Source: a virus
Taxonomy: Duplodnaviria; Caudoviricetes
Direction: 5' to 3' (one strand)
Virus record (IMG/VR): IMGVR_UViG_3300018080_000186
Span: 1-62,665 of that record
DNA: 62,665 nt
In this document: positions 14,068 through 62,260 of the stretch, in pieces
How the letters are laid out: every line of letters begins with the position of its first letter
Position numbering within the stretch: position 1 is the first letter of the stretch
Position numbers and translations under genes: made by a program
The notes under the pieces: generated by a model
Seen by the model: only the letters and a program-made list of their open reading frames with translations
The model's database searches: none
What the model was told of the DNA's origin: nothing

Positions 14068-14514
14068 ATGCCGCCGAAGTGTACCAGGATCGACCGCGTC
14101 GAGCTCTGCACGACCACCACCGATGTCTGCGTCGAAGGTCCGATCACGAGCAGCGATCAGGTCTACCGGGTCTGCAAGGAGCTGATGATCTGCAACCGGA
14201 TGCAGGAGGAGTTCTGGGTCCTGTGCATCAGTCCCCGCGGCGACATCGTGAGCTACGCCCCCGTGACCAAGGGGACGACCGATGAGACCATGGTCATCCC
14301 CGCGGACGTGATGAGGATCGTTCTCGCCTCTGGGGTTCGCTCCATGATCCTGATCCACAACCACCCGAGCGGAGATCCCCAGCCGTCCGCGCAGGACCGC
14401 CACCTCACCATGAGGATGATGGAGGCGGCGAAGATGGTGGGGTTCACGGTGCTCGATCACATCATCGTGGCCGAGAGCAGCTACATCAGCTTTCGAGACG
14501 AGGGGATGATGTGA
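14068..14514 (+). CDS. RadC-like JAB/MPN domain protein
   Basis: E...HNHPSGDPQPSAQD...LDHII JAB motif. Confidence 0.92.
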   Translation: MPPKCTRIDRVELCTTTTDVCVEGPITSSDQVYRVCKELMICNRMQEEFWVLCISPRGDIVSYAPVTKGTTDETMVIPADVMRIVLASGVRSMILIHNHPSGDPQPSAQDRHLTMRMMEAAKMVGFTVLDHIIVAESSYISFRDEGMM

Positions 14515-15191
14515 TGGCGAGGCGGTTCGACTACTCGACGCTCTACCGCGAGGAGCCGCTCTCGTTCAGAGGATACGGCCAGCCTCAGCGCACGGTTCCG
14601 TGCGGCGAGACTCAGGTGAAGCCCACGCCGAAGAGGAGGGCGCCGGTACCGAAGAGCTACAGGGGGCTCTCGGCCGTCGAGCTCAAGCACTGCGATCTGC
14701 CGGACCACTACTTCGACCGCGAGAACCTGGCCTGGGGCACGCAGGTGGAGTTCGAGCACACCGATGACCCCGCAGTGGCGAAGTGCATCGCGAAGGCCCA
14801 TCTGCTCGAGCGCCCCGACTACTACGATCTGCTCGAGAAGTACGTGGAGGGACACGGCATGAGAGGACTCGAACGCAGACCCACCGGAGAGATCCGTCGG
14901 CCACGCGGGATGGGCAAGAAGCCGAGCTGCAGCCCGGTCGATGCCCAGGCCATGGCAAAGAAGCACCCGAAGACCTTCAAGGTGCCGAGCAAGGCCAAGC
15001 TCAAGAAGATCAAGAAGGGCGACACGGTGAAGATCACGGTGGCCGACGAGAGGTTCTGGGTCACGGTCACGAGCGTGAAGGGCAACAAGGTCTGCGGAAA
15101 GGTCGACAACGAGACCTCGGGCGAATGCAAGAAGTTCACCTACGGCAAGAAGGTGTGCTTCAAGAAGAAGAACATCTACGACGTCTGGTGA
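14514..15191 (+). CDS. Two-domain protein: DUF5661-like plus DUF2314-like
   Basis: G.QVEFEHTDD..VA..IA..HL.E.PDYY module, and DAQAM.K.HP.TF.VP...ERFWV...G.VDN module, separated by an MRGL/RGMG linker. Confidence 0.6.
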   Translation: MARRFDYSTLYREEPLSFRGYGQPQRTVPCGETQVKPTPKRRAPVPKSYRGLSAVELKHCDLPDHYFDRENLAWGTQVEFEHTDDPAVAKCIAKAHLLERPDYYDLLEKYVEGHGMRGLERRPTGEIRRPRGMGKKPSCSPVDAQAMAKKHPKTFKVPSKAKLKKIKKGDTVKITVADERFWVTVTSVKGNKVCGKVDNETSGECKKFTYGKKVCFKKKNIYDVW

Positions 15192-15195
15192 GAGA

Positions 15196-16089
15196 GTGGA
15201 CAGAGACGGACAGATCGGTAGCTTCATCGGACTCGGCCTGACCGGTGCGTTCACCATCGGTAGCCTCGCGGCCCTGGTCCATGCCCGCAGTCGAGACGAG
15301 GCCGGGAAGATCGACCGGTGCCAGAGCTTCTACTCCGGCGAGGTGCCCGGGTACGACACGGAGCCTGGTCGTGACTACCTCGTGCTCGTGCAGGTCGACG
15401 GGATGATGCAGCCGGTCTGCGATGCCGTCGCGATCTGGTTCGGGAGCAGCGGTGAGGATGCCCGGTTCGTCTACGATCTGGGCAGGAGCGCGGGGGCCCT
15501 GCCTCCCCTCGGCGCCCTGCTCGCGGTCGGCCACCATCGCAGGAGCGGATCGCACTACCTGGGCAAGAAGGGGCCCATGCGCGGCTTCAACCTCTGGGGC
15601 CAGATGGCCGGGAAGAAGTGGCGCGAGGACGGCAAGCCGTTCGTGGCCTCCCATGGATCCGAGTTCGAGATCCGTGCTGGGGCATCCCAGGTCTCGGGGC
15701 CCTTCAAGAAGTTCTTCGACACCCCGGAGGAGAGCATCGGGGACTTCCTGGGCGCGTTGCGGAACAACTGGCCGCAGGCCTACGACGAGCTCAAGAGAAA
15801 GCAGCCGAATCCCTACGCCTACACCTGGTACCTGCAGGGGGCCCACTCGGTCTACGGTGGCAACTACGCCTCGACGCTCAAGGACGCGGGCGGGCCCTGG
15901 CTGATGGGCACGAGCATCGTCAGCAAGCTCAAGGCCGCCGCCGAGGCCCTGTACCAGGAGGCTTCCTACAACGGCCTCGTGGAGTGGGCAGAGTCGCTCC
16001 CAGAGCTCTCCTACCAGGAGGCCCTGGCCCTGGATGCGGAGTTCCCTGACCGGTCGGGTCCCTACCCCCTTGGAGGAGATCTACCATGA
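15196..16089 (+). CDS. GH73 glucosaminidase-like protein with N-terminal membrane anchor
   Basis: FNLWG..., F..F.TPEESIGD, and YAS motifs of FlgJ-type muramidases. The usual catalytic Glu is not obvious. Confidence 0.55.
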   Translation: MDRDGQIGSFIGLGLTGAFTIGSLAALVHARSRDEAGKIDRCQSFYSGEVPGYDTEPGRDYLVLVQVDGMMQPVCDAVAIWFGSSGEDARFVYDLGRSAGALPPLGALLAVGHHRRSGSHYLGKKGPMRGFNLWGQMAGKKWREDGKPFVASHGSEFEIRAGASQVSGPFKKFFDTPEESIGDFLGALRNNWPQAYDELKRKQPNPYAYTWYLQGAHSVYGGNYASTLKDAGGPWLMGTSIVSKLKAAAEALYQEASYNGLVEWAESLPELSYQEALALDAEFPDRSGPYPLGGDLP

Positions 16090-16895
16090 GCGGGTACTCG
16101 GGATCGTCCGGCAAGGACAGGTGGCCATCGGTCAAGGCCGCGATCAAGGCCGGCAAGAGCTCCACGGCGCACAAGAGGATCAGCAACTGCGTTCCCAAGA
16201 CGCTGCAGTGGACCTCCCTGTTCAACCAGTACCGCAAGGACATCCCTCTGGCCTTCATGGTCGTCAAGGCGGCCTTCGAGTCGTGCGGGAAGGCGGATGC
16301 CCTGACGAAGAGCGGGAAGGACATCGGTCTGTTCCAGCTCTTTCCCATCCACTTCGAGAGAAACGGGCTGACCCCGACGCAGGGACTCGATCCGGCCAAC
16401 AACACCAGGATCTTCGTGAAGGTGCTCGATGGGAGAGCAGCCTCGTTCGAGAAGAGCCACGGGTCCTGGTTCCCCAACGGCCGGGACTGGTCCTTCTGGG
16501 GCATCATGTGGCTCACCGCGGGCATCGGACCCGGGGCGACCCGTCACCTGCTCAACCAGGTCAGCCAGGGTCCTGGGGCCTTCAACAAAATCGTCTCGTT
16601 CGTGAGCTCCCACCCGGGATGGATGGAGGAGTACGCGCAGGACGCGAAGTGGGGAGTGCAGAGCGGCCGGCTCGTCGCGTTCCGGGTCATGGTGGCCTGG
16701 GACGTGGTGGGGGAGATCCGAAAGCTCGAGGCGAGCGGCGAGCTCGAGGAGTACGTCACGCAACCCGTTCCTGGGGTACCTCGTGGAGGTGACCTGGGGC
16801 GCATCTTCGGCATCACCCTCGCGGTCCTCGGATCTGCGAGTTCAGCAGCTCTGGTGGGATGGACCGCCTACCAGGGCCTGAGGAGGAAGAGATGA
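16086..16895 (+). CDS. Membrane-anchored lytic transglycosylase (SLT domain)
   Basis: FES...GLFQ...DPANN SLT motifs; C-terminal TM helix followed by RRKR. Confidence 0.8.
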   Translation: MSGYSGSSGKDRWPSVKAAIKAGKSSTAHKRISNCVPKTLQWTSLFNQYRKDIPLAFMVVKAAFESCGKADALTKSGKDIGLFQLFPIHFERNGLTPTQGLDPANNTRIFVKVLDGRAASFEKSHGSWFPNGRDWSFWGIMWLTAGIGPGATRHLLNQVSQGPGAFNKIVSFVSSHPGWMEEYAQDAKWGVQSGRLVAFRVMVAWDVVGEIRKLEASGELEEYVTQPVPGVPRGGDLGRIFGITLAVLGSASSAALVGWTAYQGLRRKR

Positions 16896-17615: not shown

Positions 17616-19259
17616 ATGAGCGCACCAGTCGTAATCTATTCCGATGACGTCGAGAGTTCACCGTTCGTGGTGACCAAGCTCTACGTCGACATCGTCAACG
17701 GCGACGACAACAACGACGGCCTGTCCTGGGCCACGGCGAAGCAGACGGACGCGGTCTTCGACCTGGTCCCCAACGGGGGCTGGTGTGCCGTCTACGTCAG
17801 GAGCCACGGTGGTACCTTCGTCATCGACAAGCGGACGCTGCCCTACGCCCAGTACGAGGGGCAGCTCTCGATCATCGGTGACGATGCGTGGGCCGAGACC
17901 GACTTCGGCGTGGTGACCAACTTCGCACACTTCGGTGGGAAGTACTTCCGCGATGAGATCACCATCGCGTGGGACTCGCATGTCCCCAGTGACGCCACGG
18001 ATCGTCAGCAGTTCATCCGCTTCACCGACGACGACGGGAACGAGTGGATCTGGAAGGTGTACGAGTACATGGGCGCGAACGTCTACGAGGCGTTCTCCGG
18101 GTTCGGCAACCCCAACATGGCCGCGGGAAACGAGGAGATCCACCTCGTCAAGCCGACGACGACCATCGCCCCTGCTCTCGTCACGCAGGCGGGAACCTTC
18201 GCGACGAACGGACGTGTCGGATTCATCGGATGCGTGCTGGCCTCCCCGGGGCAGAACGGGTTCCGCGAGTTCGACACCACGGCCTGCCACATCGACGCGA
18301 CGGCGCACAACGCTGCTTTCGCATGGGGCAGCAAGGGGTTCTGCACGAAGCTGTTCACCGACGACCTGGGCGTTCTCGCTCCGCAACTCTACATCCCTCG
18401 GCAACTGCTCGAGGGGACTGTCATGGAGAAAACGCAGGGGGGGGCCTACGGTGCTGCGAGCTACCTGGAGATGTCGGGTGCAGGCTACGCCTACTTCGCG
18501 GACGACAACCCGGGATCGTACAACCTCAGCCGCTGCAACGGATTGGTGTATGAGGGCGGGAATATCGAGTTCTGGAACGCGGTCCACACCACGTTCAACT
18601 ACGCCAGGGGAGTCGAGGACGGCGTGAGCGGATTCCGAGCTCTGGCCAGGTCACTCGTGGACACGAACGGCGTCAACTGCGACAAGGTCACCGCAGAGGC
18701 CGACGGCTACATCCGCGTGCAGACGCTGATGACCCCGGAGATCGACATCATCGAGGGGTGGCTGGGATCGAGCGGTGGCGTGAAGACCATCGACCTGGTG
18801 ACGAGCAACCCGACCCGAGACTCCCACTGCCTCAGGGTTCACCGAGGTGGCGTGACCGGACAGATCGAGATCAAGGGTGGATACTCGACCTCGGGTGTTG
18901 CTCTCCCGGCCACCAGGATCGACGGAATCTGCGAGGGACTCGAGCTGAACTTCGATGACATGGACAGGGGCGACGGTCCCGTGAACCACATCCGAGGCGG
19001 GGCTCGCGTCGAACTGATCAAGTGCGTGGGTGACAACCTCAACCTGGGAGTGGGTGGCACGAACGTCGGATTGCAGATCGAGGACCAGACCTACGTCGAG
19101 GCCGACGACGACGGCACCGGCAACCTCACCGCCACTGGTGCGGATGGGGACGTGCTGCTCGGCGCAAGCGCCGCGCCCATCGCGTGGCCAGCCCCCCCGA
19201 GCTACAACACGGACCTCGCTGCGGTTGCTCCGCAGATGTCGGTCCTCAAGATCGTGTAG
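17616..19259 (+). CDS. Putative spike/receptor-binding protein (beta-helix type)
   Basis: N-terminal LYVD...GDDNNDGLSWATAK.T motif typical of pectin-lyase-fold proteins; Gly/Asn-rich beta repeats. Confidence 0.65.
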   Translation: MSAPVVIYSDDVESSPFVVTKLYVDIVNGDDNNDGLSWATAKQTDAVFDLVPNGGWCAVYVRSHGGTFVIDKRTLPYAQYEGQLSIIGDDAWAETDFGVVTNFAHFGGKYFRDEITIAWDSHVPSDATDRQQFIRFTDDDGNEWIWKVYEYMGANVYEAFSGFGNPNMAAGNEEIHLVKPTTTIAPALVTQAGTFATNGRVGFIGCVLASPGQNGFREFDTTACHIDATAHNAAFAWGSKGFCTKLFTDDLGVLAPQLYIPRQLLEGTVMEKTQGGAYGAASYLEMSGAGYAYFADDNPGSYNLSRCNGLVYEGGNIEFWNAVHTTFNYARGVEDGVSGFRALARSLVDTNGVNCDKVTAEADGYIRVQTLMTPEIDIIEGWLGSSGGVKTIDLVTSNPTRDSHCLRVHRGGVTGQIEIKGGYSTSGVALPATRIDGICEGLELNFDDMDRGDGPVNHIRGGARVELIKCVGDNLNLGVGGTNVGLQIEDQTYVEADDDGTGNLTATGADGDVLLGASAAPIAWPAPPSYNTDLAAVAPQMSVLKIV

Positions 19260-20427: not shown

Positions 20428-21453
20428 ATGGGGGCTCGAGTCTACAGTCGGTTTGGCCGGCGGGCCCGAGCCCCCTCTCGTTCCCTGGGCTTGATGTACG
20501 AGGACGAGGCCTTCGATAAGGCCGCTCGGGAGTGGGGCACCACCGACAATCCATACGACGCCGGATACATCCTGCCGGACGGATCCCTGCTGGACATGAG
20601 TGAGGGAGGTGGCGAGGGGAGAACTCTGGATCACAGGGCCGTCCAGGGTATCCTGCAGCGCGATTACCCACGTCAGGGTGCCATGGTCGAGTTCATGAGT
20701 CGTGGGGCCATCAGGATGCACGCCAGCCCCCGGGAGAGAGCCCTGTTCCTCGACGTGGTCCGGCGACCCACCGATGCCCAGGACTCCACGATCCGACGTC
20801 TCGTGCCATGGTTCGAGGAGGTCCGTGCGGAGATCACCAACCCGGACACTGGGTACGTCGAGGTCTGGGACCACTGGGGGGATCCTGGTGGCAAGAGACT
20901 GCACCCGCGGCCCGTCATCATGTTCCTGGACGAGCGCGGGATGCGCGGCCTCGGTGCTCGAGGACGAGCCGACTGGATCATCGTCGCTAGGGACCCGATC
21001 ACCGGAGAGCAGGTGACATGGGAGACGAGCTCTCATTCCGATGCGAGACGGAGGGCCGAACGGATCCGCAGGGAGCAGTGGCACGCAGATACGGAGTATG
21101 GCCGAGAGGCGGTCAGGTATCAGGATGTGAGGATCATCAGCAAGAGCCAAGGCCATATGCTCGACGGCCTCTCCGGGTTCCCGAAGGTGACCAGGTCCAC
21201 CCGCAAGGGCAAGAAGTTCAAGGTCAGGGTGTGCAGGAAGATCCGAGGAGAGCAGCGGTGCAAGACCATCCACTTCGGTGCGACGGGGTATCGCATCAAG
21301 CCGGGGACGAAGGCAGGTGACAGCTACTGCGCCCGCAGCGCCGCCCAGCAGGGAGCGGATGACCCGTTCAGCGCCGCGTACTGGTCCAGGCGGATGTGGG
21401 GTTGCGAGGGCAAGAAGAGCGTCAAGGGCAAGGCACTGAAGGTGGGAAAATGA
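20428..21453 (+). CDS. Three-module protein with a C-terminal DUF5754/DUF6321-like domain
   Basis: GYILPDG..LD.S...DHR module, MRGLG linker, small module, LDGLSG linker, then STRKGKK...IHFGA.GY...SYCARS...YWSR.MW module. Confidence 0.6.
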   Translation: MGARVYSRFGRRARAPSRSLGLMYEDEAFDKAAREWGTTDNPYDAGYILPDGSLLDMSEGGGEGRTLDHRAVQGILQRDYPRQGAMVEFMSRGAIRMHASPRERALFLDVVRRPTDAQDSTIRRLVPWFEEVRAEITNPDTGYVEVWDHWGDPGGKRLHPRPVIMFLDERGMRGLGARGRADWIIVARDPITGEQVTWETSSHSDARRRAERIRREQWHADTEYGREAVRYQDVRIISKSQGHMLDGLSGFPKVTRSTRKGKKFKVRVCRKIRGEQRCKTIHFGATGYRIKPGTKAGDSYCARSAAQQGADDPFSAAYWSRRMWGCEGKKSVKGKALKVGK

Positions 21454-21830
21454 AGAGACGACCCAGGAGGATCTCAGGACGGATGACACGGCCCCGGGGC
21501 GTCGGTGTGGGCGTGGACCCGGCGCGGTGCGACCAGATCCACTGGACGCAGATCGCCGGGGAGATCTCCGAGCTCAAGCGCATCTACACGGGTCTGCCGC
21601 TCCCGGGCAAGCCCAAGGTCGCGAAGAGGTGCATGTGGGCCCTCGAGACGGCCCTGGGCAAGTACGAGGAGGCGGAGACATACCGGGAGCGCGGGGAGTG
21701 CGAGCTCGCCGGAGAGTTCGGCCTGGACGCCATCCGCTACCATGGGATCTTCCTGCACTGCCAGATGAACCAGCCCAAGGCCAAGAAGAAGAAGCCGAAG
21801 AAGCGCAAGACGCGCAAGAAGAAGAGGTGA
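21450..21830 (+). CDS. Basic Cys-containing helical protein
   Basis: Poly-Lys C-terminal tail; translationally coupled start. Confidence 0.6.
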   Translation: MKRRPRRISGRMTRPRGVGVGVDPARCDQIHWTQIAGEISELKRIYTGLPLPGKPKVAKRCMWALETALGKYEEAETYRERGECELAGEFGLDAIRYHGIFLHCQMNQPKAKKKKPKKRKTRKKKR

Positions 21831-21833
21831 GTC

Positions 21834-22145
21834 ATGATGGAAGCTGGAGCACAGATCGTTCCGAGGTCCTCCGAGGGTGTGGGAGCTCTGGCCTACCCTG
21901 GATTCGACCCTGTCCACCTGAACCCGGGTGAGCACGGGGTCGTGTCCCCGTCGGCAGCGTTTGGGAGTGACAAGCTCCTGAAGGCCTACGGTGGGTACGG
22001 GGAGATCAGCGACGGCGCCGCCGTGGCGGCTGCGGTGGGCATCGGGGTCGCGGCGCTGGTCGTGACCGTGGGATCCTACGCGCTGCTCGCCTACGTCATC
22101 GGATGGGGCGCGAGCAAGGGCTGGAAGAAGGCGAAGGGCAAGTGA
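21834..22145 (+). CDS. Small C-terminally anchored membrane protein
   Basis: LKAYGGYG, then a TM helix and a basic tail. Confidence 0.7.
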   Translation: MMEAGAQIVPRSSEGVGALAYPGFDPVHLNPGEHGVVSPSAAFGSDKLLKAYGGYGEISDGAAVAAAVGIGVAALVVTVGSYALLAYVIGWGASKGWKKAKGK

Positions 22146-22168
22146 GACGCCGATACCCAGAGGAACCC

Positions 22169-22363
22169 ATGACGGTGGCCTACGGGCCCCCTGACGCTCG
22201 TGAGGGCCTTGGGGCACCCGGAGTCGAGGAGGAGTTCGAGGAGGCCGTCATCGAGGGCTCAGTGGTGCCCAGGGCCATCGCCATCGGCGGCGGCATCGTC
22301 TCGGGGGTCGTCATGTTCGGATCCATCGCCTACGCGATCGTCAAGAGGCCGAAGAGGCGGTGA
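22169..22363 (+). CDS. Small C-terminally anchored membrane protein
   Basis: MTVAYG...EGLG, then a TM helix and KRPKRR. Confidence 0.65.
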   Translation: MTVAYGPPDAREGLGAPGVEEEFEEAVIEGSVVPRAIAIGGGIVSGVVMFGSIAYAIVKRPKRR

Positions 22364-22379
22364 GACCTACGGGTACTGC

Positions 22380-23213
22380 ATGACCCTCGAGGAGTTCCGC
22401 ACGATCATGAGCAAGGGCGTCAACGGTCTGGGAGATGGAAGCATGAGACCCGGTATCACCTACACCTACTTCTTCGCGTTCGACCCGGAGATGAGCACCT
22501 GGATCGGGCCGTTCGACACGTTCGAGAGGGCCCTGCAGGAGATCGCGATGCGCTACTACTCCTACCACGAGAGGTACGGCGTGGAGGACGCGCAGCAGGA
22601 CGGCTACAAGGTGGGTGAGATCAGGACGAGCGACCCCGAGGATGCCGAGCGCATCATGGACACGAAGGGCCCCGAGCGAGACTACCCGGTGCGGGTCCAG
22701 GTGACCGATCGGGTGGCCTACGCGCACGGTGGAGGCCGGACCATGAGGGTTGCCCGAGACCAGAGCCTCAACGGCCTGGGAGGAGAAGACATGGACGACA
22801 TCGAGCAGAGGGCGGAGCAGCTCGCCTGGAGGGACACCCGAGACTCGTTCTGGGAGGGCCCGATGGACGAGAGCGACCGTACGAACTGGGCGGCGACCAT
22901 CGCGCAGCACCGCGACAGCGATCCTCTCGCCGTGAGCAACTACCGGGTCATCTCCCGGGACCTGGAGTCGAAGTTCCCCGACGACGTCGAGGAGCACCGA
23001 TTCAGCCACTGGGCGGTGGGCTGGATGGACCACCTGTTCGTCCGCATCCGGGACGACCAGGGCAACTTCACGCCGGCGTTCCTCCGAGTCATCGAGTGGG
23101 AGGAGGAGCTCGAGAACTACCCCGTCGCCAACGAGGAGGACCTCGGAGAGGTGGAGATGGAGATGGGCTACGACCCCGACACTGGGGAGTGGTCTGAGAG
23201 CATCGTGCACTGA
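22380..23213 (+). CDS. Two-module protein delimited by NGLG sites
   Basis: VNGLG and LNGLG linkers. The C-terminal RDSD.L..SN...HWAVGW...YPV module resembles a conserved phage hypothetical family. Confidence 0.7.
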   Translation: MTLEEFRTIMSKGVNGLGDGSMRPGITYTYFFAFDPEMSTWIGPFDTFERALQEIAMRYYSYHERYGVEDAQQDGYKVGEIRTSDPEDAERIMDTKGPERDYPVRVQVTDRVAYAHGGGRTMRVARDQSLNGLGGEDMDDIEQRAEQLAWRDTRDSFWEGPMDESDRTNWAATIAQHRDSDPLAVSNYRVISRDLESKFPDDVEEHRFSHWAVGWMDHLFVRIRDDQGNFTPAFLRVIEWEEELENYPVANEEDLGEVEMEMGYDPDTGEWSESIVH

Positions 23214-39605: not shown

Positions 39606-41827
39606 CATGGACGAGCGCGAAGACATCATGAAGATGATCAATGACTCGAAGGGATCGTCGTGGGCCACCCTGGGGGCCCTCGGTTACGGAGCCGCCCTGC
39701 CGATGCTTATGGGAGGCCTGATGGGCAAGCTCGGAAGGATCAAGGAAGTGAAGCTCGTCTACGAGAAGATCTCTCTCAGCGCGTTCGATGACCGACACGT
39801 CATCGTGCTCATCGGGCCCGATTCCAGAGTCTGGGGTAGCCTGAGCACCCATGCCGTCGAGCAGCTCAAGCGCCAGCCCGGAGACGTCCTCAGGCTCGGT
39901 GAGGTGCCCGAGGAGGAGGAGAAGGACGAGGACACCCCCGAGGACGAGGAGCCCACTGAGCAGCCAGGGAGGGCCCCTGAGGAGGGCCCGGATATTGACG
40001 AGGGCACCGGCCTCGTCGGAGCCGGGAGAGGCAACTACTTCTACTGTCCGTTCTGCGGGAAGATGCTCGCTGGACCACGGAGGCGGGCCGATCACATCAG
40101 GAGGGAGCATGAATCCTTCCTGGACAAGTACCCCAAGATCAAGGCCGAGGTCGAGGAGATCCTGCACGGGAAGGATGAAGGATGAGTGGGGCATTCGGAC
40201 CCAGCATCATCGGTGGCGGCATGGGTGGGGGGCTTCGATGGCGCGATATCAGGACTGGGGTGCGTTGCATCCACTGCGGCAAGGGCGAGTTCCTGATCAG
40301 TCACGAGGCCAGTGACACAAGGTGGGGCGTGGACGGATACTACGTCACCTGCACCTTCAGCCCACGACAGGGGGCCATCTGCCCCTGGGTCGAGAAGACC
40401 GACTACCGAGGCTACCCGCTCACAGAGGAGCAGGCCAGATTTTTCATCCCCCACGAGGGCAACCCGGACGCCATGGCCTATCTGCTTAGGCAGTACTGCC
40501 CCGAGCTCCGCGATGCGGTCCTCGAGCAGTTCGACCCGCACAAGCATGACCCGTACCAGAGGGCAGCAGACAGGGCGGCCGACGAGGAGCACGTCGAGAA
40601 GCACAAGGGGAGGAAGAAGCTATGAGTGATGAGGCGAGAAGGTGGGCGGTGGCGAGCATGAAGGCGGGGGATCTCCTCAGCAAGTGGTTCTGGAAGCACC
40701 CACGAATCCTCAAGACAATCGCACCGAAGCTCCCCGAGATCATCGACGTGCTCAAGGCCGCAGACATCCAGAAGATCGAGGTCCTGCTCGAGCACGGGTG
40801 GAAGCAGTGAAGGCCTGGTATGCGGCCGCGGCCATCGCGATGATCGCAGGGGCCGTCTATGCGCTGTGGAAGATCGACTGGGAGTGGAGCCAGGAGCTCG
40901 CCCCGACCCTGGCCATGATGATCATCCTCGGGGTTCTCATGCTATTTGCCTGGGCCTCGGAGCACATTCTGGAACCATTCAAGAAACGGAAGGAGAAGAA
41001 CATGTCCGAAGGAGTCTACAAGCTGTTCGTCCCGTGCCCGAAGTGCGGGAAGCCCCACGGTGTCCGTCTCGTGGTGGACGAGTCCGAGTTCAGGGTTGTG
41101 TGCATCAGTTGCGAGGAGATGGATGAGAGCGTGGAGCTCGACCAGGTCCTCGAGACGGTGAGCACCCTGACGCTGGTGGCCCACGACGAGGGCCCCCTCG
41201 AGGAGCAGAAGGTGCAGGAGGTCGTGGCGGATCTGCTCGGGCTCCCGGAGGAGGAAGAATGAAGCTCTCGCAGGTGGTGGACCGTGTCATCAGGGCCATC
41301 GAGGAGCGCCTCGAGCCCGATCAGGCATACCAGACCACCATGCTCCGTGGCATGGCCGGACAGCTCATCAGGCAGTTCGGGGACCTGGAGCTCAACATCA
41401 TCGTGAAGCGGATCCCGCTCGAGGAGGTGCAGGATGGGGAAGCGGCGGAAAAGGACGAGAAGTAGGGCCCCTGCGATGGACCCTCAGGAGAGGGCCACCA
41501 ACCAGAGGGCCATCGGGATGCTCAAGCGCATCACCCGGCGACTGGGACGTGGACAGCAGATGCCGTTCCTGGTGGTCTCGGTGGAGCCTGGGAGGCACCC
41601 GACCACCGGGGAGGTCCGGGCCCTGCCCGCGATCCTCAGCACCAGGATGGAGCAGAAAAAGTCTGCGTTCCTGATCCAGGCCCTGTTCAGCCACCTGGCG
41701 GAGATCGGGGCCGTGAAGCCCAATCCTGGGCCCCAGGAGGCCGAGAAGGCCTCGGGGGTGGTCCAGGGTGCCCCCGACCCTTCCGGGGGCCTGGACACGA
41801 ACCTGGACGAGCCTGACGCGGACGTGG

Positions 41828-42658
41828 ATGGCGAGTAGCCCTGACCTGCAGGGCTTCGAGACCTGGCTGCGCCGTCGTCAACTCAGAGCTCTGACCATCA
41901 AGGCCTACGTGGCCTCGGTGAAGTTCGCCTACAAGCGGGGCAACCCGGTCAAGGCCCTGTCCGGGGCCAAGAGCCGGGGACGCCACACGCAGCTCCGCAG
42001 CGCCCTCAACCAGTACGCGAGGTTCTCCAAGAACGAGGCCATGCTCGAGGACATCCGGGCTGTTCAGAGACCCCGAACGAAGCGCAAGCCGGCCCGCAGG
42101 CCCCTGGACACCCAGGAGTGGAACGAACTGCTCCGGTCGGTGAAGATCGAGGAGGAGCCCATCTCACAGGCCCTCGTGCTCATCGTCCACACTGGACTGC
42201 GGAGCTCGGATGTGCTGAACATCGAGAGAAGCTACGCCGAGCAGGGCCTCGAGAACGGCATCCTGCAACTGGAGCAGAAGGGAGGGGACTACAGGCCCTT
42301 CCCCGTCGGCGGGGGCATGAGGACGGCCCTGCGCGAGCTCGTGGAGTACTGGGAATGGGAGAGGCTCCGGGACATCATCTCCGACGGTCAGAGCGACAAC
42401 GCCGCCTACATGGTCGTCTACCGCAAGCTCAAGAAGGCTGCGGAGAGGGCCGGGTTCGAGCCGGGGCGTGTCCACCCCCACCTGCTGCGGATCACTGCGG
42501 CCATCCAGCTCTACACCAGGACCAAGGACATCTGGGCGGTCAAGGAGTGGCTCGGGCACTCCGACATCGCCACGACCCAGATCTATCTAAGCAAGTACAC
42601 CAACCCCGACAACCTCATGGACTCGATGAGAGCCCTGCAAGAGGAGAGAGAGGAGTAG
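41828..42658 (+). CDS. Tyrosine recombinase (XerC/D-like integrase/resolvase)
   Basis: TGLR, K, HLLR and LGH....T..Y catalytic motifs. Short, with no arm-binding domain. Confidence 0.92.
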   Translation: MASSPDLQGFETWLRRRQLRALTIKAYVASVKFAYKRGNPVKALSGAKSRGRHTQLRSALNQYARFSKNEAMLEDIRAVQRPRTKRKPARRPLDTQEWNELLRSVKIEEEPISQALVLIVHTGLRSSDVLNIERSYAEQGLENGILQLEQKGGDYRPFPVGGGMRTALRELVEYWEWERLRDIISDGQSDNAAYMVVYRKLKKAAERAGFEPGRVHPHLLRITAAIQLYTRTKDIWAVKEWLGHSDIATTQIYLSKYTNPDNLMDSMRALQEEREE

Positions 42659-53004: not shown

Positions 53005-53892
53005 ATGGGGCGGTGGATCCGAGTCGACGTTCTCGTCCACGACAACCCGAAGGTCGTGGCTGCCGGATTCTGGGGAATGACGGTCATCCAGGCCGCCTGG
53101 AGGATGAGCAAGGCTCACGATCTCGACGGTGAGCTCTCCGACCGCCACTGGACCCCCCAGATGCTGCTGAGATGGACCCTGGCGACCCCAGATCAGCTCG
53201 AGGACATCCAGGACGGGATGGCGGCCTGCATCAGCGAGGGGCTGGTGGAAACCGTTACGCGTAACGACCGTAACGCATTTCAGCTACACGATTGGGACGA
53301 CTACCAGAAGGATCCGACGGCCGCCGAGAGGATGAGAAGATACCGAGAGCGAAAGAAGAAGGAGAAGAAATCTAACGTAAGTGCCCGAAAACTCGATCCA
53401 GCACCCCCCGTTACGCGTAACGGCCGTAACGTTACGCTACAGGACATGACAGGACAAGACAGAAGAATGGATGAGAGGGGACGCTCTTCTCGTATGGAGA
53501 GATCTGATTCGACAGCATTGTCAGAATCGAATGAGCATAGAGACAGCAGTATCGAGAGTAGTGATCGTAGCGCCCCCTTGGTCTGGGACCTGTGGCCCAT
53601 CTACATCGAGTTTTACAATGAGTCGAAAGGTGTCCCGCCTGCCACAAGCTCCTCCACACAGACCCAACTTGAGAAACTCTACGACTACATCGGCCAGATC
53701 ATGGATCAGGAGCAGGTGTCCTCTGCGGACGAGGATGATCGACACCAGAAGACTCTCATGTTCGCGAGGGCCGTCCTGAAAAAGTACTTCGAGAGCGATG
53801 ATGAGTTCGTGGTCAACAAGGCCGAGTTCTCCCTGGCCTACTTCGTGAGCAACGCGATGCCATCTCTTGCCAGCAAGGTTCTTGGGAAATGA
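53005..53892 (+). CDS. Phage replication initiator / replisome organizer
   Basis: WI.VD....NPK, DG.L, HDW..YQ..T.AER.RRYRE motifs; directly upstream of DnaB. Confidence 0.75.
   Translation: MGRWIRVDVLVHDNPKVVAAGFWGMTVIQAAWRMSKAHDLDGELSDRHWTPQMLLRWTLATPDQLEDIQDGMAACISEGLVETVTRNDRNAFQLHDWDDYQKDPTAAERMRRYRERKKKEKKSNVSARKLDPAPPVTRNGRNVTLQDMTGQDRRMDERGRSSRMERSDSTALSESNEHRDSSIESSDRSAPLVWDLWPIYIEFYNESKGVPPATSSSTQTQLEKLYDYIGQIMDQEQVSSADEDDRHQKTLMFARAVLKKYFESDDEFVVNKAEFSLAYFVSNAMPSLASKVLGK
53253..53465. repeat. Iteron-like palindromes, putative replication origin
   Basis: CGTTACGCGTAACG (53253-53266), CCGTTACGCGTAACGG (53408-53423), CGTAACGTTACG (53425-53436), then 5-bp ACAnG repeats. Confidence 0.65.
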
Positions 53893-55337
53893 GCGCCCCC
53901 ATCGGTACATACCAGGGCAAGACTCCTCCGCACTCAACCGAGGCCGAGCAGTCAGTGCTTGGCGCTGTCCTTCTTAGGCAAAACGTGATGGACGAGATCG
54001 TGGATGTGGTGAGGGTCAGCGACTTCTTCCACGAGGCCAACGGTACGATCTTCGACGCGATGTGCGATCTGCACGAGAAGCGCAAGCCCATCGACCCGGT
54101 CACCCTTGGTGAGAAGCTCAGATCCAAGGGGATGCTCGAACAGGTGGGCGGGCTGCAGTACATCATCTCGCTCCCCGACAAGGTGGTGACCACGGCGAAC
54201 ATCCGGCAGCACGCTCGCATCATCGCTAACTCGTCCACGTACCGTGCTGTCGCCGGAGTCTGCATGGACACGCTCCAGCAGGTCTACAACTGGGACCTCG
54301 ATGACGCGCCCAATTACGCTTCGGATGTGCAGGGGCGACTTGACGAGGTCGTGGACCGTCGAGAGCAGCAAAGGATCGCCTCCATACGCGAGGGAGTCTC
54401 GCAGACACTCAAGAAGATGAACGAGGAGCTCAAGAGCCCCAGGACGCTCACGGGGGTCTCCACTGGATTCTTCGGAGTCGATCAGTTCACGCAGGGATTG
54501 CAGCCATCGGATCTGATCATCGTCGCAGGCCGTCCGTCGATGGGCAAGACAGCCGTGGCGATGAACATGGCCGTCAACGCGGCGAAGAGCGAGGTCGAGT
54601 TCGTCAAGGAGCACGGAGAGGAAGACGATCAGCCACGGAGGATCGCAGTCTTCTCCTTGGAGATGAGCACGGACAAGCTGATTCGACGGATGCTCGCGGT
54701 TGAGGCTGGCGTACCGGGATGGAGGCTGATGAATCCAAAGAGCCTCTCCACGAAGGCAACCGAGAGCATCGTGGCCGCTGGGGGCGCCCTCGATGCTCTC
54801 CCGATTGTCATCGATGACACGGATGGGATGAACGTGCGTGACATTGTGGTTAGGTCACGCCGACTCAACCGACGACAGCCGCTGTCGATGGTCGTCGTGG
54901 ACTACCTGCAGATCGTGAAGGCTCTTCCGCGCAAGGGAGATAAGTACAACCGGGACCGCGAGCTCGGGGAGATCACCGCTGCCCTGAAGGGGCTCGCGAA
55001 GGAGCTGCAGATCCCCGTGCTCCTCATCAGCCAGCTCAACCGTGGCAACGAGTCGAGACAGGACAAGCGGCCTCAGCTTTCGGATCTGCGAGAGTCGGGA
55101 GCCATCGAGCAGGATGCCGACGTCGTGGCCTTCATTCACCGCGAGGCCTACTACGACGAGAAGGCTGATCGCGAGCTGGCCGAGCTCATCTTCCGCAAGC
55201 AGCGCAACGGTCCCCTCGGCACCGTGCTGCTTCGATGGGAGGAGCACATCACCAGGTTCAGCAACACCGCGGAGCAAGACGAGCTCGCGGCCTCATTCGA
55301 GCAGGAGGGGTTCGATTGGGATCAGCAACCATCCTAG
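53889..55337 (+). CDS. dnaB: Replicative DNA helicase DnaB
   Basis: EAEQSVLG, GRPSMGKT, FSLEM, VDYLQ, SQLNR, DLRESGAIEQDAD, KQRNG motifs. Confidence 0.97.
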   Translation: MSAPIGTYQGKTPPHSTEAEQSVLGAVLLRQNVMDEIVDVVRVSDFFHEANGTIFDAMCDLHEKRKPIDPVTLGEKLRSKGMLEQVGGLQYIISLPDKVVTTANIRQHARIIANSSTYRAVAGVCMDTLQQVYNWDLDDAPNYASDVQGRLDEVVDRREQQRIASIREGVSQTLKKMNEELKSPRTLTGVSTGFFGVDQFTQGLQPSDLIIVAGRPSMGKTAVAMNMAVNAAKSEVEFVKEHGEEDDQPRRIAVFSLEMSTDKLIRRMLAVEAGVPGWRLMNPKSLSTKATESIVAAGGALDALPIVIDDTDGMNVRDIVVRSRRLNRRQPLSMVVVDYLQIVKALPRKGDKYNRDRELGEITAALKGLAKELQIPVLLISQLNRGNESRQDKRPQLSDLRESGAIEQDADVVAFIHREAYYDEKADRELAELIFRKQRNGPLGTVLLRWEEHITRFSNTAEQDELAASFEQEGFDWDQQPS

Positions 55338-56779: not shown

Positions 56780-58753
56780 ATGGCAGCGAAGGGAAGGAAG
56801 CAGGTCGAGAAAATCAGTGGCAGTCCTCTGCAGAAGCTCCTGGCTCTGGCGCAGGAGCACAACCTCGAGCACTACCGATGCCTGGTCCGTCGGCGCAAGC
56901 CCGACGGCACGATGAAGATCATCAAGACCTACAAGCATCTCAAGCCGGAAGAGATCGACCACATGGTGGACTGGATCCCGGAGATGTACGGAGGCGGTGA
57001 CTTCGAGGTGGAGATCACGCACCCGATGGATCCTCAGCAGAGGTGGTACAACTGGGGCTTCGAGGCGGAGGGAGATCCCGTCGAGCCTCAGCGCAAGGGG
57101 TCGACTCCCGTCAGTGGCATCGACCAGTCCCTGCAGGGGGCGCAGGCGCAGCAGCAGTACCCCCCGTGGAATCCTCCGCAGCAGCATGCCCCGATGGCGC
57201 AGCAGGGCCCACCGAGACCGGGGATGCCCCCCGGATCTCCCCTCGCCGGGTACGCCCCTCCCGGAATGCCCCAGTACAACCCGTGGGGCTACCAGCGCCC
57301 ACAGGCCACCCCGCAGTCCACAGGCCCCTCGGCTCGCGAGAGGGCCCTCGAGCAGGAGATGGCGGCGCTGAGGAAGCAGAACGAGGACATGCTCCGCAAT
57401 CTCCAGGACCAGCGCCACCAGGAGGAGCTCCGTCGTCAGCGCGAGGAGTCGGATCGGCAGTTCCGCGAGCTCAAGACGAGCATGGACCAGCAGATCCAGC
57501 TCCTGAAGAACGAGCTCACGCAGAACCGCAACCGCCCCGACGACGGCGGCGGCATGAAGGATCTGTTCAACATCTTCATGAAGAGCCAGGAGGCCAACCA
57601 GACCATGCTCACCTCGCTGATGAAGCGAGACAGCGAGAGTGCCAAGGACCAGCTCAAGCACATGCAGTCGCAGATGGAGAAGGATCTGGAGTTCCGCAAG
57701 GAGATGTACCAGATGGCGATGGACCAGAAGGATCCATCGCAGGCCGCGGCGATGCTCGACGTGATGGGCCAGCAGACCGCCTCGATGCTCAACCTCATCA
57801 ACCAGGCGGTGAGCTCGGGTCTGCTCGGCCAGGCCGACGGAGATCCCGCATGGCTGAGAGCGGTGCAGCAGGGGCTGCAGGGGCTGCAGGAGTTCGGGCA
57901 GAATTTCCTCACGGCCAAGCAGCAGGAGGCCGCGATGGCCCAGCTCCGTCAGCCACCGCAGCCCGGAGCCCCGAGGTTCCCCCCGCAGAGACCCGGAGCC
58001 CCGCCGCAGCAGGGCCCACCGATGCCTGGACAGGCCCCCGCGGCGCCGGCGATGCCGCCACAGGGCCCGCAGGCACCGACGGCGGTACCGGGGATGCAGG
58101 CGGCCGGACTCGGCCAGCCCCCGGCCCAGGCGCAGCAGCAGGAGCAGGAGCCCGAGGATGAGGAGGAATACGAGGAGGGAGGGGCACCTCAGGCTCCCCC
58201 CTCTCTCATCGTCCCGATCCAGAAATACGAGGAGGGAGGGGCACCTCAGGCTCCCCCCTCGCTCATCATTCCGATTCAGAGGTTCACCAGCGCCATCGCG
58301 GATGGGGCACCCCCGGAGATCGTCGCGGACCTCATCTACTCCTTCGTGGACTTCCTCCGTGCCAACGACATGCTGCCGCCGGAGTGGCGCAACGTCTACA
58401 CCGACCCGGCCGACACCATCGACAAGTTCCTGCAGGCGTTCGTTCCCCACATCCAGCCCACCCGTGACTACCTGACTGAGGTCGGGGGCTACTTCCTCGA
58501 GAACGAGCGCGAGTACGGTCCCGACAGCGAAGACGGGAGCCCCGGGCCGAGCGCGAAGCTCCAGGTCGTGGATTCTCCAACCCCGCCGGCGTCCCCCGAC
58601 GAGGAGGAACCGGAGGTGCAGGAGGTCGAGGCGAAGGAGAAGGTGATCGAGGAGGAGGAGACGGAGAGCGACAAACCCGATCCCGACATCGAGCCACCCT
58701 CACCGCTCGAGCCGCCCAAGGACGAGAGCCCGCAGCCCCCGGCCTCGGAGTAG
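56780..58753 (+). CDS. Gln/Pro/Met-rich coiled-coil protein, assembly scaffold candidate
   Basis: Globular N-terminus, Q/P linkers, coiled coil, helical domain, acidic tail. Confidence 0.7.
   Translation: MAAKGRKQVEKISGSPLQKLLALAQEHNLEHYRCLVRRRKPDGTMKIIKTYKHLKPEEIDHMVDWIPEMYGGGDFEVEITHPMDPQQRWYNWGFEAEGDPVEPQRKGSTPVSGIDQSLQGAQAQQQYPPWNPPQQHAPMAQQGPPRPGMPPGSPLAGYAPPGMPQYNPWGYQRPQATPQSTGPSARERALEQEMAALRKQNEDMLRNLQDQRHQEELRRQREESDRQFRELKTSMDQQIQLLKNELTQNRNRPDDGGGMKDLFNIFMKSQEANQTMLTSLMKRDSESAKDQLKHMQSQMEKDLEFRKEMYQMAMDQKDPSQAAAMLDVMGQQTASMLNLINQAVSSGLLGQADGDPAWLRAVQQGLQGLQEFGQNFLTAKQQEAAMAQLRQPPQPGAPRFPPQRPGAPPQQGPPMPGQAPAAPAMPPQGPQAPTAVPGMQAAGLGQPPAQAQQQEQEPEDEEEYEEGGAPQAPPSLIVPIQKYEEGGAPQAPPSLIIPIQRFTSAIADGAPPEIVADLIYSFVDFLRANDMLPPEWRNVYTDPADTIDKFLQAFVPHIQPTRDYLTEVGGYFLENEREYGPDSEDGSPGPSAKLQVVDSPTPPASPDEEEPEVQEVEAKEKVIEEEETESDKPDPDIEPPSPLEPPKDESPQPPASE
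58167..58280 (+). repeat. 57-bp in-frame tandem duplication
   Basis: 58167-58223 vs 58224-58280 differ at 4 positions; each copy encodes YEEGGAPQAPPSLI.PIQ. Confidence 0.9.
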
Positions 58754-58756
58754 GCC

Positions 58757-59206
58757 ATGGTCGGGGTGCTGGCGGGATGGCTCCTGCGAAAATGGTGGGA
58801 GAGGCGCAACGCGCCGCCCCCTCCCGAGCCGGAGCCGGATCCCAACGGAATCTACGAGGGAACCGTGACCCTCTCGAGCGTCGTGGCGGGCCCGGTTCGT
58901 CGTGAGTGCAAGATCAGCGAGCCGCTGGACGAGGACGGCACCCGGGTGCTCCTCGAGGAGGGCGAGAAACTCGTGGAGACGACGCAGTGGGCCACGAGCA
59001 TGAAGAGCCGGGAGGACGGTCGAATCACGATCCGCTTCGAGGGAGACAGCGGTGCTCGCGACGAGATGATGAGGGCCGGAGTCGGAGACGAGTACCGCCT
59101 CGAGTTCTATCTCCTGAAGAAGGAGAAGCCACCCGTGCGGCCCGCACCATGGGAGGGTGGACATCGACCGTTCGGTGACGATGCGGGAGGAGGGATGTTC
59201 TCATGA
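58757..59206 (+). CDS. Hypothetical protein
   Basis: Has an RBS and is coupled to the next gene. Confidence 0.55.
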   Translation: MVGVLAGWLLRKWWERRNAPPPPEPEPDPNGIYEGTVTLSSVVAGPVRRECKISEPLDEDGTRVLLEEGEKLVETTQWATSMKSREDGRITIRFEGDSGARDEMMRAGVGDEYRLEFYLLKKEKPPVRPAPWEGGHRPFGDDAGGGMFS

Positions 59207-59898
59207 GCACGAAGAAGGATTCAGTCATGTTGTGCTTCGCGCCGATGCACAACACGAAGAACCGTCGGGACGCGAACGAGTTCCAGCGCCAGGCCGCCTA
59301 CTTCCTGGACTACCACAACCAGGACATGGGGATGCTGGTGCTCGTGGACAACAAGCAGTCGAAGTCGCGGATGCGAAAGACGGTGTACGATGCCATCGAG
59401 GAGTACTGCGGCGGACAGATCTGCTCGGTCCACTTCTTCTGCCACGGGTACCGCAAGGGGATCCAGTTCGGATTCACGACGAGGAACCTCGAGCTGCTCG
59501 CCAGAAAGATCTGGGCCGCAACGAGTTCGGCGCCAATCGTGACCTTCTATTCCTGCGACGTGGGACGTGACGCTGATCGCAACCGCCAGGACGACCTGCA
59601 GACCATCGGTGGCGACGGCGGGTTCTGCGACGAGTTCCGCGACGAGCTCTGTCGAGTGGGCGCAGTCAACTGCAGGGTCGATGGGCACACCACGGCGGGT
59701 CACACGACCAGGAATCCCCACGTCCGCCGCTTCAACGGTGCCGGCTCGATGACCGGCGGCCTGGGCGGCTTCTACCTCGTGTCGCGGGGCAAGAAGGATC
59801 TCTGGAAGATCTGGCGACAGGAGCTCACTGGTGACTACCGCTTCGAGTACCCGTTCCAGACCGAGAACGAGATCATCGACTACCTGAAGAGCCTCTGA
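59203..59898 (+). CDS. Putative caspase-fold (clan CD, C80/DUF4347-like) cysteine peptidase
   Basis: His-Cys dyad pattern VHFFCHG ... VTFYSC. Confidence 0.55.
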   Translation: MSTKKDSVMLCFAPMHNTKNRRDANEFQRQAAYFLDYHNQDMGMLVLVDNKQSKSRMRKTVYDAIEEYCGGQICSVHFFCHGYRKGIQFGFTTRNLELLARKIWAATSSAPIVTFYSCDVGRDADRNRQDDLQTIGGDGGFCDEFRDELCRVGAVNCRVDGHTTAGHTTRNPHVRRFNGAGSMTGGLGGFYLVSRGKKDLWKIWRQELTGDYRFEYPFQTENEIIDYLKSL

Positions 59899-60022: not shown

Positions 60023-60655
60023 ATGCCTTGTATGTCGGGAGCGGTATCCACAGACACGCAAGTGGCAGGCTACTCAATCGTCGGAGACGACGACCGGGTA
60101 GAGCTCATCCGTCAGATGGTCTTCGAGAGCATCAAGGACCCGCTTGTGCTCTGGACCGCTCGACACATCACAGCGAAGTGCCAAGGGCGCGACGATCACT
60201 GCGAACTGGAAGCCTTGTACGAGGCCGTCAAGAAGGGTCCGATACCTCTGCCCGATGGGGACAGCGGGAAGGTGATCGAGACACCCGGATTGAGGTTCGT
60301 CAACGACCCGCGATTCACGGACACCTACCCTACCGCGGGGAAGATCCTGAGGTGGCAGGCGCAGGGGGCGAACGGGGAGGACTGCGACGGCCACACGATC
60401 TTGGTCGATGCGATGCTCAACGCACTGGGCTGGCTCACGGGCGGGGTGATCGCGAGCAAGGACGGCAACGAGTTCGTCCATGTGTTCCCGGTCGCCGGCT
60501 ACCCCAAGGATGAACCGACCGAGTGGATCCCGATGGACACCACGGTGAAGGAGGCGAGTGTAGGTTGGTGGCCGCCCAAGACCCTCGTGAGGCGCATGAG
60601 GATCTACGGATTCCTGCCAAACTTCCAGGCGAAGGGAAGGGAGCTCAGACTATGA
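60023..60655 (+). CDS. Transglutaminase-like cysteine protease, putative maturation protease
   Basis: V....RF..DP, DCDG (catalytic Cys), HVF (His), W.PMD.T (Asp). Confidence 0.8.
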   Translation: MPCMSGAVSTDTQVAGYSIVGDDDRVELIRQMVFESIKDPLVLWTARHITAKCQGRDDHCELEALYEAVKKGPIPLPDGDSGKVIETPGLRFVNDPRFTDTYPTAGKILRWQAQGANGEDCDGHTILVDAMLNALGWLTGGVIASKDGNEFVHVFPVAGYPKDEPTEWIPMDTTVKEASVGWWPPKTLVRRMRIYGFLPNFQAKGRELRL

Positions 60656-61737: not shown

Positions 61738-61931
61738 GAGTGGTCGTTCCCAGGAGCTACCGCAGGCTCGAGCAGATCCCCGAGGAGCTCGCGCTGCCGG
61801 CCTCCCAGATCGGGGCCACGCAGCCGTCGTCCCGGGGTGAGGCCATCTCGGTGATCGGCGTCACCCTCGCGTTCTTCTCCACCCTCATGATCTTCGCATC
61901 ACTGATGGGACAGGGGGCCGAGAAGCGATGA
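61734..61931 (+). CDS. Small membrane protein
   Basis: Single TM helix; coupled GTG start. Confidence 0.55.
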   Translation: MRVVVPRSYRRLEQIPEELALPASQIGATQPSSRGEAISVIGVTLAFFSTLMIFASLMGQGAEKR

Positions 61932-62260
61932 GGAAGCGCAAGCCCAGGAAGGTGCCGATCCACGATCCTGGCCTCGGGGCCAATCTCGACGTGATGACCC
62001 TCTCGGGCTACGGGGAGAAGCGCAAGGGTCTCTGGCAGGAAGTCTACGGGGGCAAGCGCAACTACCCGAAGCTCAACGGCACTGGCAAGAAGAAGTGCGT
62101 GAGCTGGAAGACGGTCGGGAAGGGATGCAAGTGCAAGCCCCAGTGCGTGAGCTTCACCTCGCGATCCAAGGGCATGAGCAAGAAAGCAGCCGTCTCGCAA
62201 TGCGAGCGGAAGTGTTCAACCAAGAAGCGCCGGAAAAAGAGCCGACGCGGGAGGAAGTAA
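61928..62260 (+). CDS. Lys/Arg/Cys-rich core-like protein
   Basis: Extremely basic; PGLG and LSGYG motifs. Confidence 0.7.
   Translation: MRKRKPRKVPIHDPGLGANLDVMTLSGYGEKRKGLWQEVYGGKRNYPKLNGTGKKKCVSWKTVGKGCKCKPQCVSFTSRSKGMSKKAAVSQCERKCSTKKRRKKSRRGRK

Follow-up and report, generated by a model that had tools for sequence, protein, structure and literature searches.

Glycine-centred junctions between independent modules in small polyproteins of an uncultured virus, and a candidate protease for their proposed cleavage

Several small proteins encoded in the complete IMG/VR virus record IMGVR_UViG_3300018080_000186 (62,665 bp with direct terminal repeats; GC content, 63%) consist of unrelated domains strung between short Gly-Leu-Gly segments, and the locus raises the question of what these segments are. 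The whole record was analysed and is referred to as the window. Almost all of its genes lie on the plus strand; they were called crudely via the codon-position GC pattern, and hand refinement yielded 80 proteins, few of which are recognized by Pfam, PHROGs, or NCBIfam. In the original prediction, the segment was regarded as a plug-in tag specific to cargo proteins, which would load interchangeable effectors into the virion and release them by cleavage. We found that four genes encode strings of independent modules, which are connected by hydrophobic-x-Gly-(Leu/Tyr)-(Gly/Ser). The junction may be a protease site that is cut by the virus's own caspase-fold protease, a reading that we favour but place a little short of an even chance. 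Cleavage itself, the enzyme that cuts, the position of the cut, and any packaging or injection of the products are points that we infer.

The four genes are those of polyproteins A, B, and C and a fourth polyprotein-style gene that was absent from the original prediction (Table 1). The motifs of polyproteins B and C sit where they had been predicted, and the gene that had been placed at 14514-15191 and described as built likewise does show four junction sites. When the modules were searched after splitting at the motif, DUF5661 in polyprotein A scored 38.2 bits (cut-off, 27) and DUF5754 in module B3 of polyprotein B scored 27.8 bits (cut-off, 27.4), and these two family labels of the prediction can be retained, whereas the third, DUF2314 in polyprotein A, remained below threshold (19.3 bits; cut-off, 22). 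No family was assigned to B1, B2, C1, or the fourth polyprotein in the scans of the three libraries. The 22-residue leader of polyprotein B is uncertain, as translation may start at 20494, the position used in the database gene call P0033. The RadC-like gene and polyprotein A overlap by stop and start (14068-14514 and 14511-15191), as do polyprotein B and the next gene (ATGA at 21450-21453), which suggests that these genes may be translationally coupled.

Table 1. Positions of the polyprotein genes with their modules and junctions, candidate processing enzymes, leader motifs, and other features; positions refer to the window unless a locus is named
Feature	Protein	Residues	Position	Strand	Remarks
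Polyprotein A	P0003, 226 aa		14511-15191	+	Leader, FRGYG, spacer, YRGLS, DUF5661 module, MRGLE, PRGMG, DUF2314/CusF-like beta module
FRGYG	P0003	19-23	14565-14579
YRGLS	P0003	50-54	14658-14672
MRGLE	P0003	117-121	14859-14873
PRGMG	P0003	131-135	14901-14915
Polyprotein B	P0001, 341 aa		20428-21453	+	B1, B2, and B3 modules
B1 ('GYILPDG') module	P0001	23-171
MRGLG	P0001	172-176	20941-20955
B2 module	P0001	177-244			Orphan
LDGLS(G)	P0001	245-249	21160-21174
B3 module	P0001	250-341			DUF5754
Small gene			21450-21830	+	14-residue basic leader, PRGVG, one module; overlaps stop of polyprotein B
PRGVG	Small gene product		21492-21506
Polyprotein C	P0002, 277 aa		22380-23213	+	13-residue leader, C1, C2
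VNGLG	P0002	14-18	22419-22433		After the 13-residue leader
C1 module	P0002	19-129			Orphan
LNGLG	P0002	130-134	22767-22781
C2 ('QHRDSD...HWAVGW') module	P0002	135-277			Matches phrog_4313
Fourth polyprotein	P0301, 361 aa		60652-61737	+
YSGYG	P0301		60793-60807
LRGLG	P0301		61171-61185
MRGLG	P0301		61552-61566
LMGLG	P0301		61654-61668
Candidate caspase-fold protease	231 aa		59203-59898	+	Clan CD, DUF4347/C80-like; invariant His81-Gly82 and Cys118
Second candidate protease			60023-60655	+	Transglutaminase-like; between the caspase-fold gene and the fourth polyprotein
RadC-like JAB-domain gene			14068-14514	+	PF04002, E 2e-35; stop overlaps start of polyprotein A
Leader MELVAYGGYG			8405
Leader ...LYRGYG			11131
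Leader ...PGMRGYG			12191
Leader MSGYSG			16086
Leader VAGYS			60023
Leader HDPGLG + LSGYG			61928
SLT transglycosylase			16086-16895		Library match (Pfam/PHROGs/NCBIfam)
Integrase			41768-42658		Library match (Pfam/PHROGs/NCBIfam)
DnaB			53889-55337		Library match (Pfam/PHROGs/NCBIfam)
Polyvalent protein, locus L098	At least 1605 aa		L098:15853-20669		Runs to locus end
Polyvalent protein, locus L099	974 aa		L099:15972-18896

The limits of homologous proteins coincide with the motif. An exhaustive HMMER search with P0001 retrieved 780 cluster representatives at E <= 0.001, and B1 is a widespread family without a Pfam name, found alone in proteins of ~150 aa and inside proteins of 1,000-6,128 aa. 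Homologues of B3 are mostly stand-alone proteins of 57-140 aa; the module starts within the first 20 residues in 23 of the 30 stored homologues, and the N-termini of these 23 project onto P0001 at a median of residue 248 (range, 189-273), the GLS of the second junction being located at 247-249. None of the 28 stand-alone homologues of C2 aligns upstream of residue 136 of P0002, and their N-termini project to residues 127-151 in 26 cases (GLG, 132-134), the other two homologues having N-terminal extensions. A confident model of B1 was obtained from 58 sequences (mean predicted local distance difference test score [pLDDT], 93.1), in which the last helix spans 138-151 and the confidence falls to 60 at the G-L-G (152-154); no solved structure resembling this model was found. 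For B2 alone, no homologue was present among the 150 listed matches of the P0001 search. Homologue limits, the fold model, and the homology breakpoints of relatives described below all lie on the motif, in line with the outcome predicted for splitting the proteins at the motif and searching each piece. The accompanying claim, that the modules occur elsewhere as stand-alone proteins or within giant polyvalent proteins, is borne out by B1, B3, C2, and DUF5661.

In relatives, the modules recur in different combinations, with the motif retained at most junctions, as expected from the original prediction. P0004 is 67% identical over C2, and its match to P0002 begins exactly at G132, which is aligned to its own QGYGG; upstream of C2 it contains unrelated modules (X1 and X2), themselves with MGYGQ. 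P0035 matches P0001 over residues 23-177, through its own LKGLG; another module of the B1 type and then a C-terminal module follow. The latter corresponds to the product of the separate gene at 21450-21830 of the virus (53% identity; E, 1e-31), here fused in frame behind the B1 modules. The leader of that gene, RPRGVGVG, aligns with the P0035 junction EKGFGQALG, and the split gene appears from this alignment to retain the junction as its N-terminal leader. In P0036, B1 is joined directly to B3, and B2 is absent. P0034 (1,299 aa) contains seven B1-type repeats and other modules, with x-G-L-G at 6-7 of its 8 junctions, and the N-termini of P0038 and P0039 read MRARGKGLGA and MSERGYAGLGR, respectively. 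In P0184, which is 84% identical to P0003, all four sites are conserved, the third as MRGLG instead of the MRGLE of P0003. No close relatives of P0001, P0002, or a 707-aa protein were found in IMG/VR. Scans with the B1 alignment yielded 80 metagenome loci, all distant (28-61% identity) and mostly matching over the first ~100 residues, and, among genomes, a single distant match in a metagenome-assembled genome of Gemmiger.

The frequency of the motif was compared with that in shuffled sequences, with the caveat that the gene calls are crude. The strict motif was defined as [YLMFVIW]-x-G-[LYMFI]-[GS], a form widened after the junctions had been seen, and the 'late' region as genes with a start below 23300 or above 56000, limits set after the matches had been seen; these two choices belong with the points against the favoured reading that are gathered below. 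In individual polyproteins, the observed and expected numbers were 2 and 0.08 (p 0.003), 2 and 0.32 (p 0.04), and 2 and 0.25 (p 0.02). The 99 crude open reading frames contain 34 matches (15.5 +/- 3.7 expected) and the late region (9,242 aa) contains 33 (10.1 +/- 3.2 expected), counts reached by none of 1000 shuffles in either set, whereas the other region (7,164 aa) contains 3 (4.3 +/- 2.0 expected). Ten matches were found in six close relatives (2.7 +/- 1.7 expected; 0/300 shuffles), which, like the late-gene half, are thus enriched ~3-fold. In contrast, no enrichment was seen in distant homologues of the same modules, i.e. 143 more distant matches of the P0001 search (92 observed, 87.3 expected) and the 28 C2 homologues (1 and 2.1), or in 122 other viral and metagenome loci. 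For the shorter pattern G[LYMF]G, the values were 36 against 17.0 in the late region, 200 against 199.3 in 42 other viral loci, and 223 against 209.6 in 80 metagenome loci, and Gly-Gly occurs 98 times in the late proteins (102 expected). Because the enrichment is found in the late half and the close relatives and is missing from distant homologues and other loci, the motif belongs to the virus lineage and not to the modules or to composition.

These counts also bear on the simplest explanation, that a Gly- and Leu-rich proteome encoded at high GC yields G-L-G often by chance. Across 17.8 thousand residues, G-L-G alone is found 22 times, and ~7 of the 33 late-region matches lie inside Gly-rich membrane helices. 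Apart from the shuffling result, however, the ratio is 1.00 in other loci with comparable GC, the motif falls on domain limits that were defined independently, and the sites are conserved in P0184, P0004, and P0034-39, which leaves chance an extremely improbable source of the motif. A joint at the DNA level, where a short conserved sequence would promote shuffling with the peptide as a by-product, would account for the homology breakpoints of the relatives lying exactly on the motif. Yet the junction codons vary from site to site (GGT CTC GGT, GGC CTC GGC, GGT CTG GGA, GGA TAC GGC, and others), the DNA word of the motif is found in frame 41 times against 17 and 7 times in the other frames, and nine bases are too short for homologous recombination. 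Varying codons and frame bias rule out a DNA-level repeat and point to selection on the peptide, and a recombination joint as such is very improbable.

The motif is not confined to polyproteins. Many other late proteins have it behind a short N-terminal stretch, and several of these end in a membrane anchor (see leaders in Table 1); the idea of a plug-in tag specific to cargo is not supported. This distribution suggests a general processing site, and the motif looks like a general protease site or maturation code of the virus lineage. A 110-aa Lys/Cys-rich protein (61928-62260) has both HDPGLG and LSGYG within its first 30 residues and is possibly another processed small basic protein.

If the junction is not cut, it may be a hinge, the Gly-Leu-Gly turn capping the last helix and starting a flexible linker within intact multi-domain polyvalent proteins. 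In all close relatives, the motif lies behind the last helix of B1, which is consistent with this, and Gly-rich linkers are common; moreover, it is believed that many polyvalent proteins function or are transferred without being cut (PMC5512222), and junction cleavage is a prediction. A hinge is not needed behind the leaders of single-module proteins, however, where the pattern is also found, and unrelated modules (C1, B2, DUF5661, and X1 and X2 of P0004) are followed by this same pattern of five residues. Gly-Gly is not enriched, the motif is missing from distant homologues of the modules, and the fixed hydrophobic-x-G-hydrophobic-small order resembles protease subsites more than a spacer. 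We regard the hinge as unlikely, although it carries appreciable weight.

According to the favoured reading, namely cleavage by the virus's own protease, the products would be small 'polyvalent' polyproteins of independently folding modules joined by hydrophobic-x-Gly-(Leu/Tyr/Met)-(Gly/Ser), cutting at the junction would release the modules as separate small proteins, and the same site behind the leaders of other late proteins would make it a general maturation code. The proposed enzyme is the product of 59203-59898, which would cut after Leu or Tyr flanked by small residues, with a precedent in MARTX toxins and large clostridial toxins, whose related protease domains free effector modules in this way. 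Among 300 candidates, 115 homologues were identified at E <= 0.001, and an alignment of 114 of these shows no variation at H81, G82, C118, G137, or R146. In the predicted structure (pLDDT, 94.8), H81-G82 and C118 directly follow strands 73-79 and 107-116, respectively. The top rows of a Foldseek search with this model were MALT1, metacaspases, and caspases (best E, 9.6e-4), with the TcdB protease domain at rank 25 (E, 7.4e-3); its BFVD matches were viral caspase-type proteins, and look-alikes in a protein atlas were DUF4347 and partly Peptidase_C80 (13% of one look-alike cluster). A PDB sequence search with the protease profile gave nothing meaningful, and no match to the protease was found in GenBank phages. 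By its modelled fold, the product is a caspase-fold protease with a His-Cys dyad, and its cleavage activity is putative. Tce1, a type VI secretion system (T6SS) effector, carries DUF4347 (PMC8262886) and has been described as a putative protease whose His and Cys line up with the dyad of TcdB (PMC13323088). In MARTX toxins, the protease domain cleaves accessible loops behind Leu, preferring a Leu that has small neighbours (PMC5216533, PMC5218395), and thereby frees effector domains (PMC5218395); in sequence, the Gly-Leu-Gly and Gly-Leu-Ser junctions fit this preference.

Several points weigh against this assignment. The product gave no Pfam Peptidase_C80 match at E up to 2 and only a weak DUF4347 match (E, 0.032; 14.4 bits). 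The gene is separate and lies ~1-24 kb from the proposed substrates, and not in cis as in MARTX. Homologues are present in 42 IMG/VR loci (27-43% identical over the best segment) of diverse tailed phages without motif enrichment (within +/-10 kb, strict motif 151 against 135.4 +/- 12 expected; G[LY]G 126 against 126.7), and no B1 module was found in any of the five records closest by protease. The absence of enrichment near the homologues suggests that the family may consist of effectors, like Tce1 and Tce2, and not of processing enzymes. As for the junctions themselves, the residue preceding Gly-Leu-Gly is not conserved, and each P0001 junction is crossed by one alignment over at least 10 residues (P0039 and P0125). 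The prediction was open to refutation by boundaries lying off the motif or by fusions lacking it; most junctions withstood this, and the exceptions are the B1-B3 joint of P0036, which reads YAGIKKG without G-L-G, and one junction of P0034 that lacks the motif.

In tailed phages, the neighbours of the protease family include genes for Baseplate_J, Mu Gp48, and SU10 portal proteins. In two of the loci with protease homologues, L098 and L099, large polyvalent proteins are encoded ~5 kb downstream; they contain DUF5661, ddrB-ParB or LPD1, and zincin-like HExxH motifs, and in L099 a Zeta-toxin-domain protein follows.

The site may instead be cut by another enzyme, such as the product of 60023-60655, the RadC-like JAB protein, an unrecognized adenovirus-like maturation protease, or a host protease; the occurrence of protease-family loci elsewhere without the motif would fit such a case. 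The look-alikes of the 60023-60655 product found with a language model carry Transglut_core, DUF553, and Peptidase_C93, with a Cys...His...Asp triad recognized by eye, and its gene is directly upstream of that of the fourth polyprotein, but the transglutaminase fold has no support from profile hidden Markov model (HMM) or PDB sequence searches. The stop of the RadC gene overlaps the start of polyprotein A; the argument has been made, however, that JAB domains of the RadC type work on nucleic acids and do not have the groove for the ubiquitin tail (PMC5512222), and RadC was accordingly retained only as a minor candidate for the junction peptidase. The adenovirus protease (AVP) cuts at (M/I/L)XGX-G or (M/I/L)XGG-X (PMC3386624), and 6 of the 12 junction sites of the virus fit the first consensus. 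However, the scans of 58-70 proteins revealed no protease family, whether clan CE, prohead, or other, and specific scans of 40-70 proteins for the clan CE families C5, C48, and C57 gave no match, although divergent members could escape. That one of these other enzymes cuts the site is, in our judgement, quite unlikely.

Comparison with known systems links the proteins to the polyvalent proteins of phages and conjugative elements, as described by Iyer, Burroughs, Anand, de Souza, and Aravind in 2017 (PMC5512222), which are defined by two to fifteen unrelated domains per phage or plasmid polypeptide and by entry into the host along with the DNA, a behaviour that is hypothetical for the virus proteins. 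The proteins of the virus likewise combine several unrelated small domains, two or three modules in each, in one polypeptide of a mobile element. DUF5661 is found inside the 974- and 1605-residue polyvalent proteins of L099 and L098 together with LPD1 or ddrB-ParB, B1 occurs in proteins of 1,000-6,000 residues with ART-PolyVal or LPD38 in 4 of the 7 scanned, and proteolytic release of domains has been proposed for that class. Unlike typical members, the virus proteins are small (226-361 aa) and have no zincin or other peptidase domain in cis. They are also distinguished by a defined, lineage-specific junction motif (in a term search, 'linker' was absent from the available text of PMC5512222), which in addition marks the leaders of other late proteins.

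The resemblance to MARTX and large clostridial toxins (C80) lies in effector modules arranged in one chain, which are released by a caspase-fold His/Cys protease (as predicted here) that cuts after Leu in exposed inter-domain loops (PMC5216533, PMC5218395), to be compared with Gly-Leu-Gly and Gly-Leu-Ser in the virus. The differences are that the virus protease is a separate gene outside the effector polypeptide, that by sequence it falls outside Pfam C80, its nearest solved structure being Tce1, that Tyr and Met are also found at the Leu position of the virus junctions, and that the setting is a virus and not a secreted toxin. Moreover, the toxin activator inositol hexakisphosphate is absent from bacteria (PMC5216533). 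AVP trims many virion precursors, and the hydrophobic-x-Gly-x-Gly pattern of the 6 sites mentioned above resembles its consensus, but no clan CE protease was detected, Tyr, Phe, or Val is frequent at P4, and Ser occurs in some cases at P1'. The internal proteins and Alt of phage T4 carry a capsid-targeting leader followed by a short cleavage motif (L/I-x-E) that is cut by a single viral prohead protease, gp21. Here, too, a short N-terminal leader and then a fixed short motif are found on many late proteins, but the motif differs, and no prohead protease, capsid, portal, or terminase is recognizable in the family scans of the virus. No report of a Gly-Leu-Gly junction code in phages or of a role of phage DUF4347 was found in the open-access literature. 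We regard the system as a variant of polyvalent or polyprotein cargo.

As to the remaining gene content, the library scans also recognized a Cas4-like exonuclease, DUF5131, and a DNA methyltransferase, and no capsid, portal, terminase, or head-protease family was detected among the 58-70 proteins scanned. A membrane-helix-like segment is present in 16 of the 80 proteins, and 14 of the 16, with the segment mostly at the C-terminus, are encoded within 56-22363. The virus may be non-tailed and membrane-containing, or a very divergent tailed virus. A 547-aa protein (17616-19259) has an N-terminal 'NGDDNNDGLSWATAK' motif, which looks like the beginning of a spike or fibre with a right-handed beta-helix. 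This motif is common to seven IMG/VR loci (L002-L008) that were found via the protein and are otherwise unrelated, nothing else being common to them. A 297-aa protein (15196-16089) with an N-terminal membrane helix and without an HMM match is encoded next to the SLT gene; judged by eye, its C-terminal half looks like a glucosaminidase or FlgJ-type cell-wall hydrolase. A 657-aa protein (56780-58753) is Gln/Pro-rich and of low complexity, with a near-exact internal duplication, 'YEEGGAPQAPPSLI(V/I)PIQ', and no family match.

Taken to its furthest extent, the proposal describes an uncultured virus lineage with MARTX-like effector release, in which a stand-alone caspase-fold protease would cut between Leu and Gly of Gly-Leu-Gly, free shuffled modules of the polyvalent type, and trim most virion and membrane proteins at their leaders. 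In this case the junction would serve as a portable 'cut here' code, and modules could be added, split off as genes of their own, or fused again without changing the mature product; the virus itself may be non-tailed and membrane-containing, given the missing capsid, portal, and terminase matches and the 14 late membrane-anchored proteins. As a whole, this extended proposal is unlikely, but it is far from negligible. If the junctions are cut, they would provide a simple rule, readable from sequence, for finding the small mature products of a virus group that almost entirely escapes annotation. Several of these proteins are members of polyvalent-protein families with a presumed role at an early stage of infection. 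With cutting at the junctions, Leu-specific release of effector strings by a caspase-fold enzyme would be extended from bacterial toxins to viruses of bacteria, and a first role would be proposed for the phage members of DUF4347 (115 homologues; 42 IMG/VR loci).

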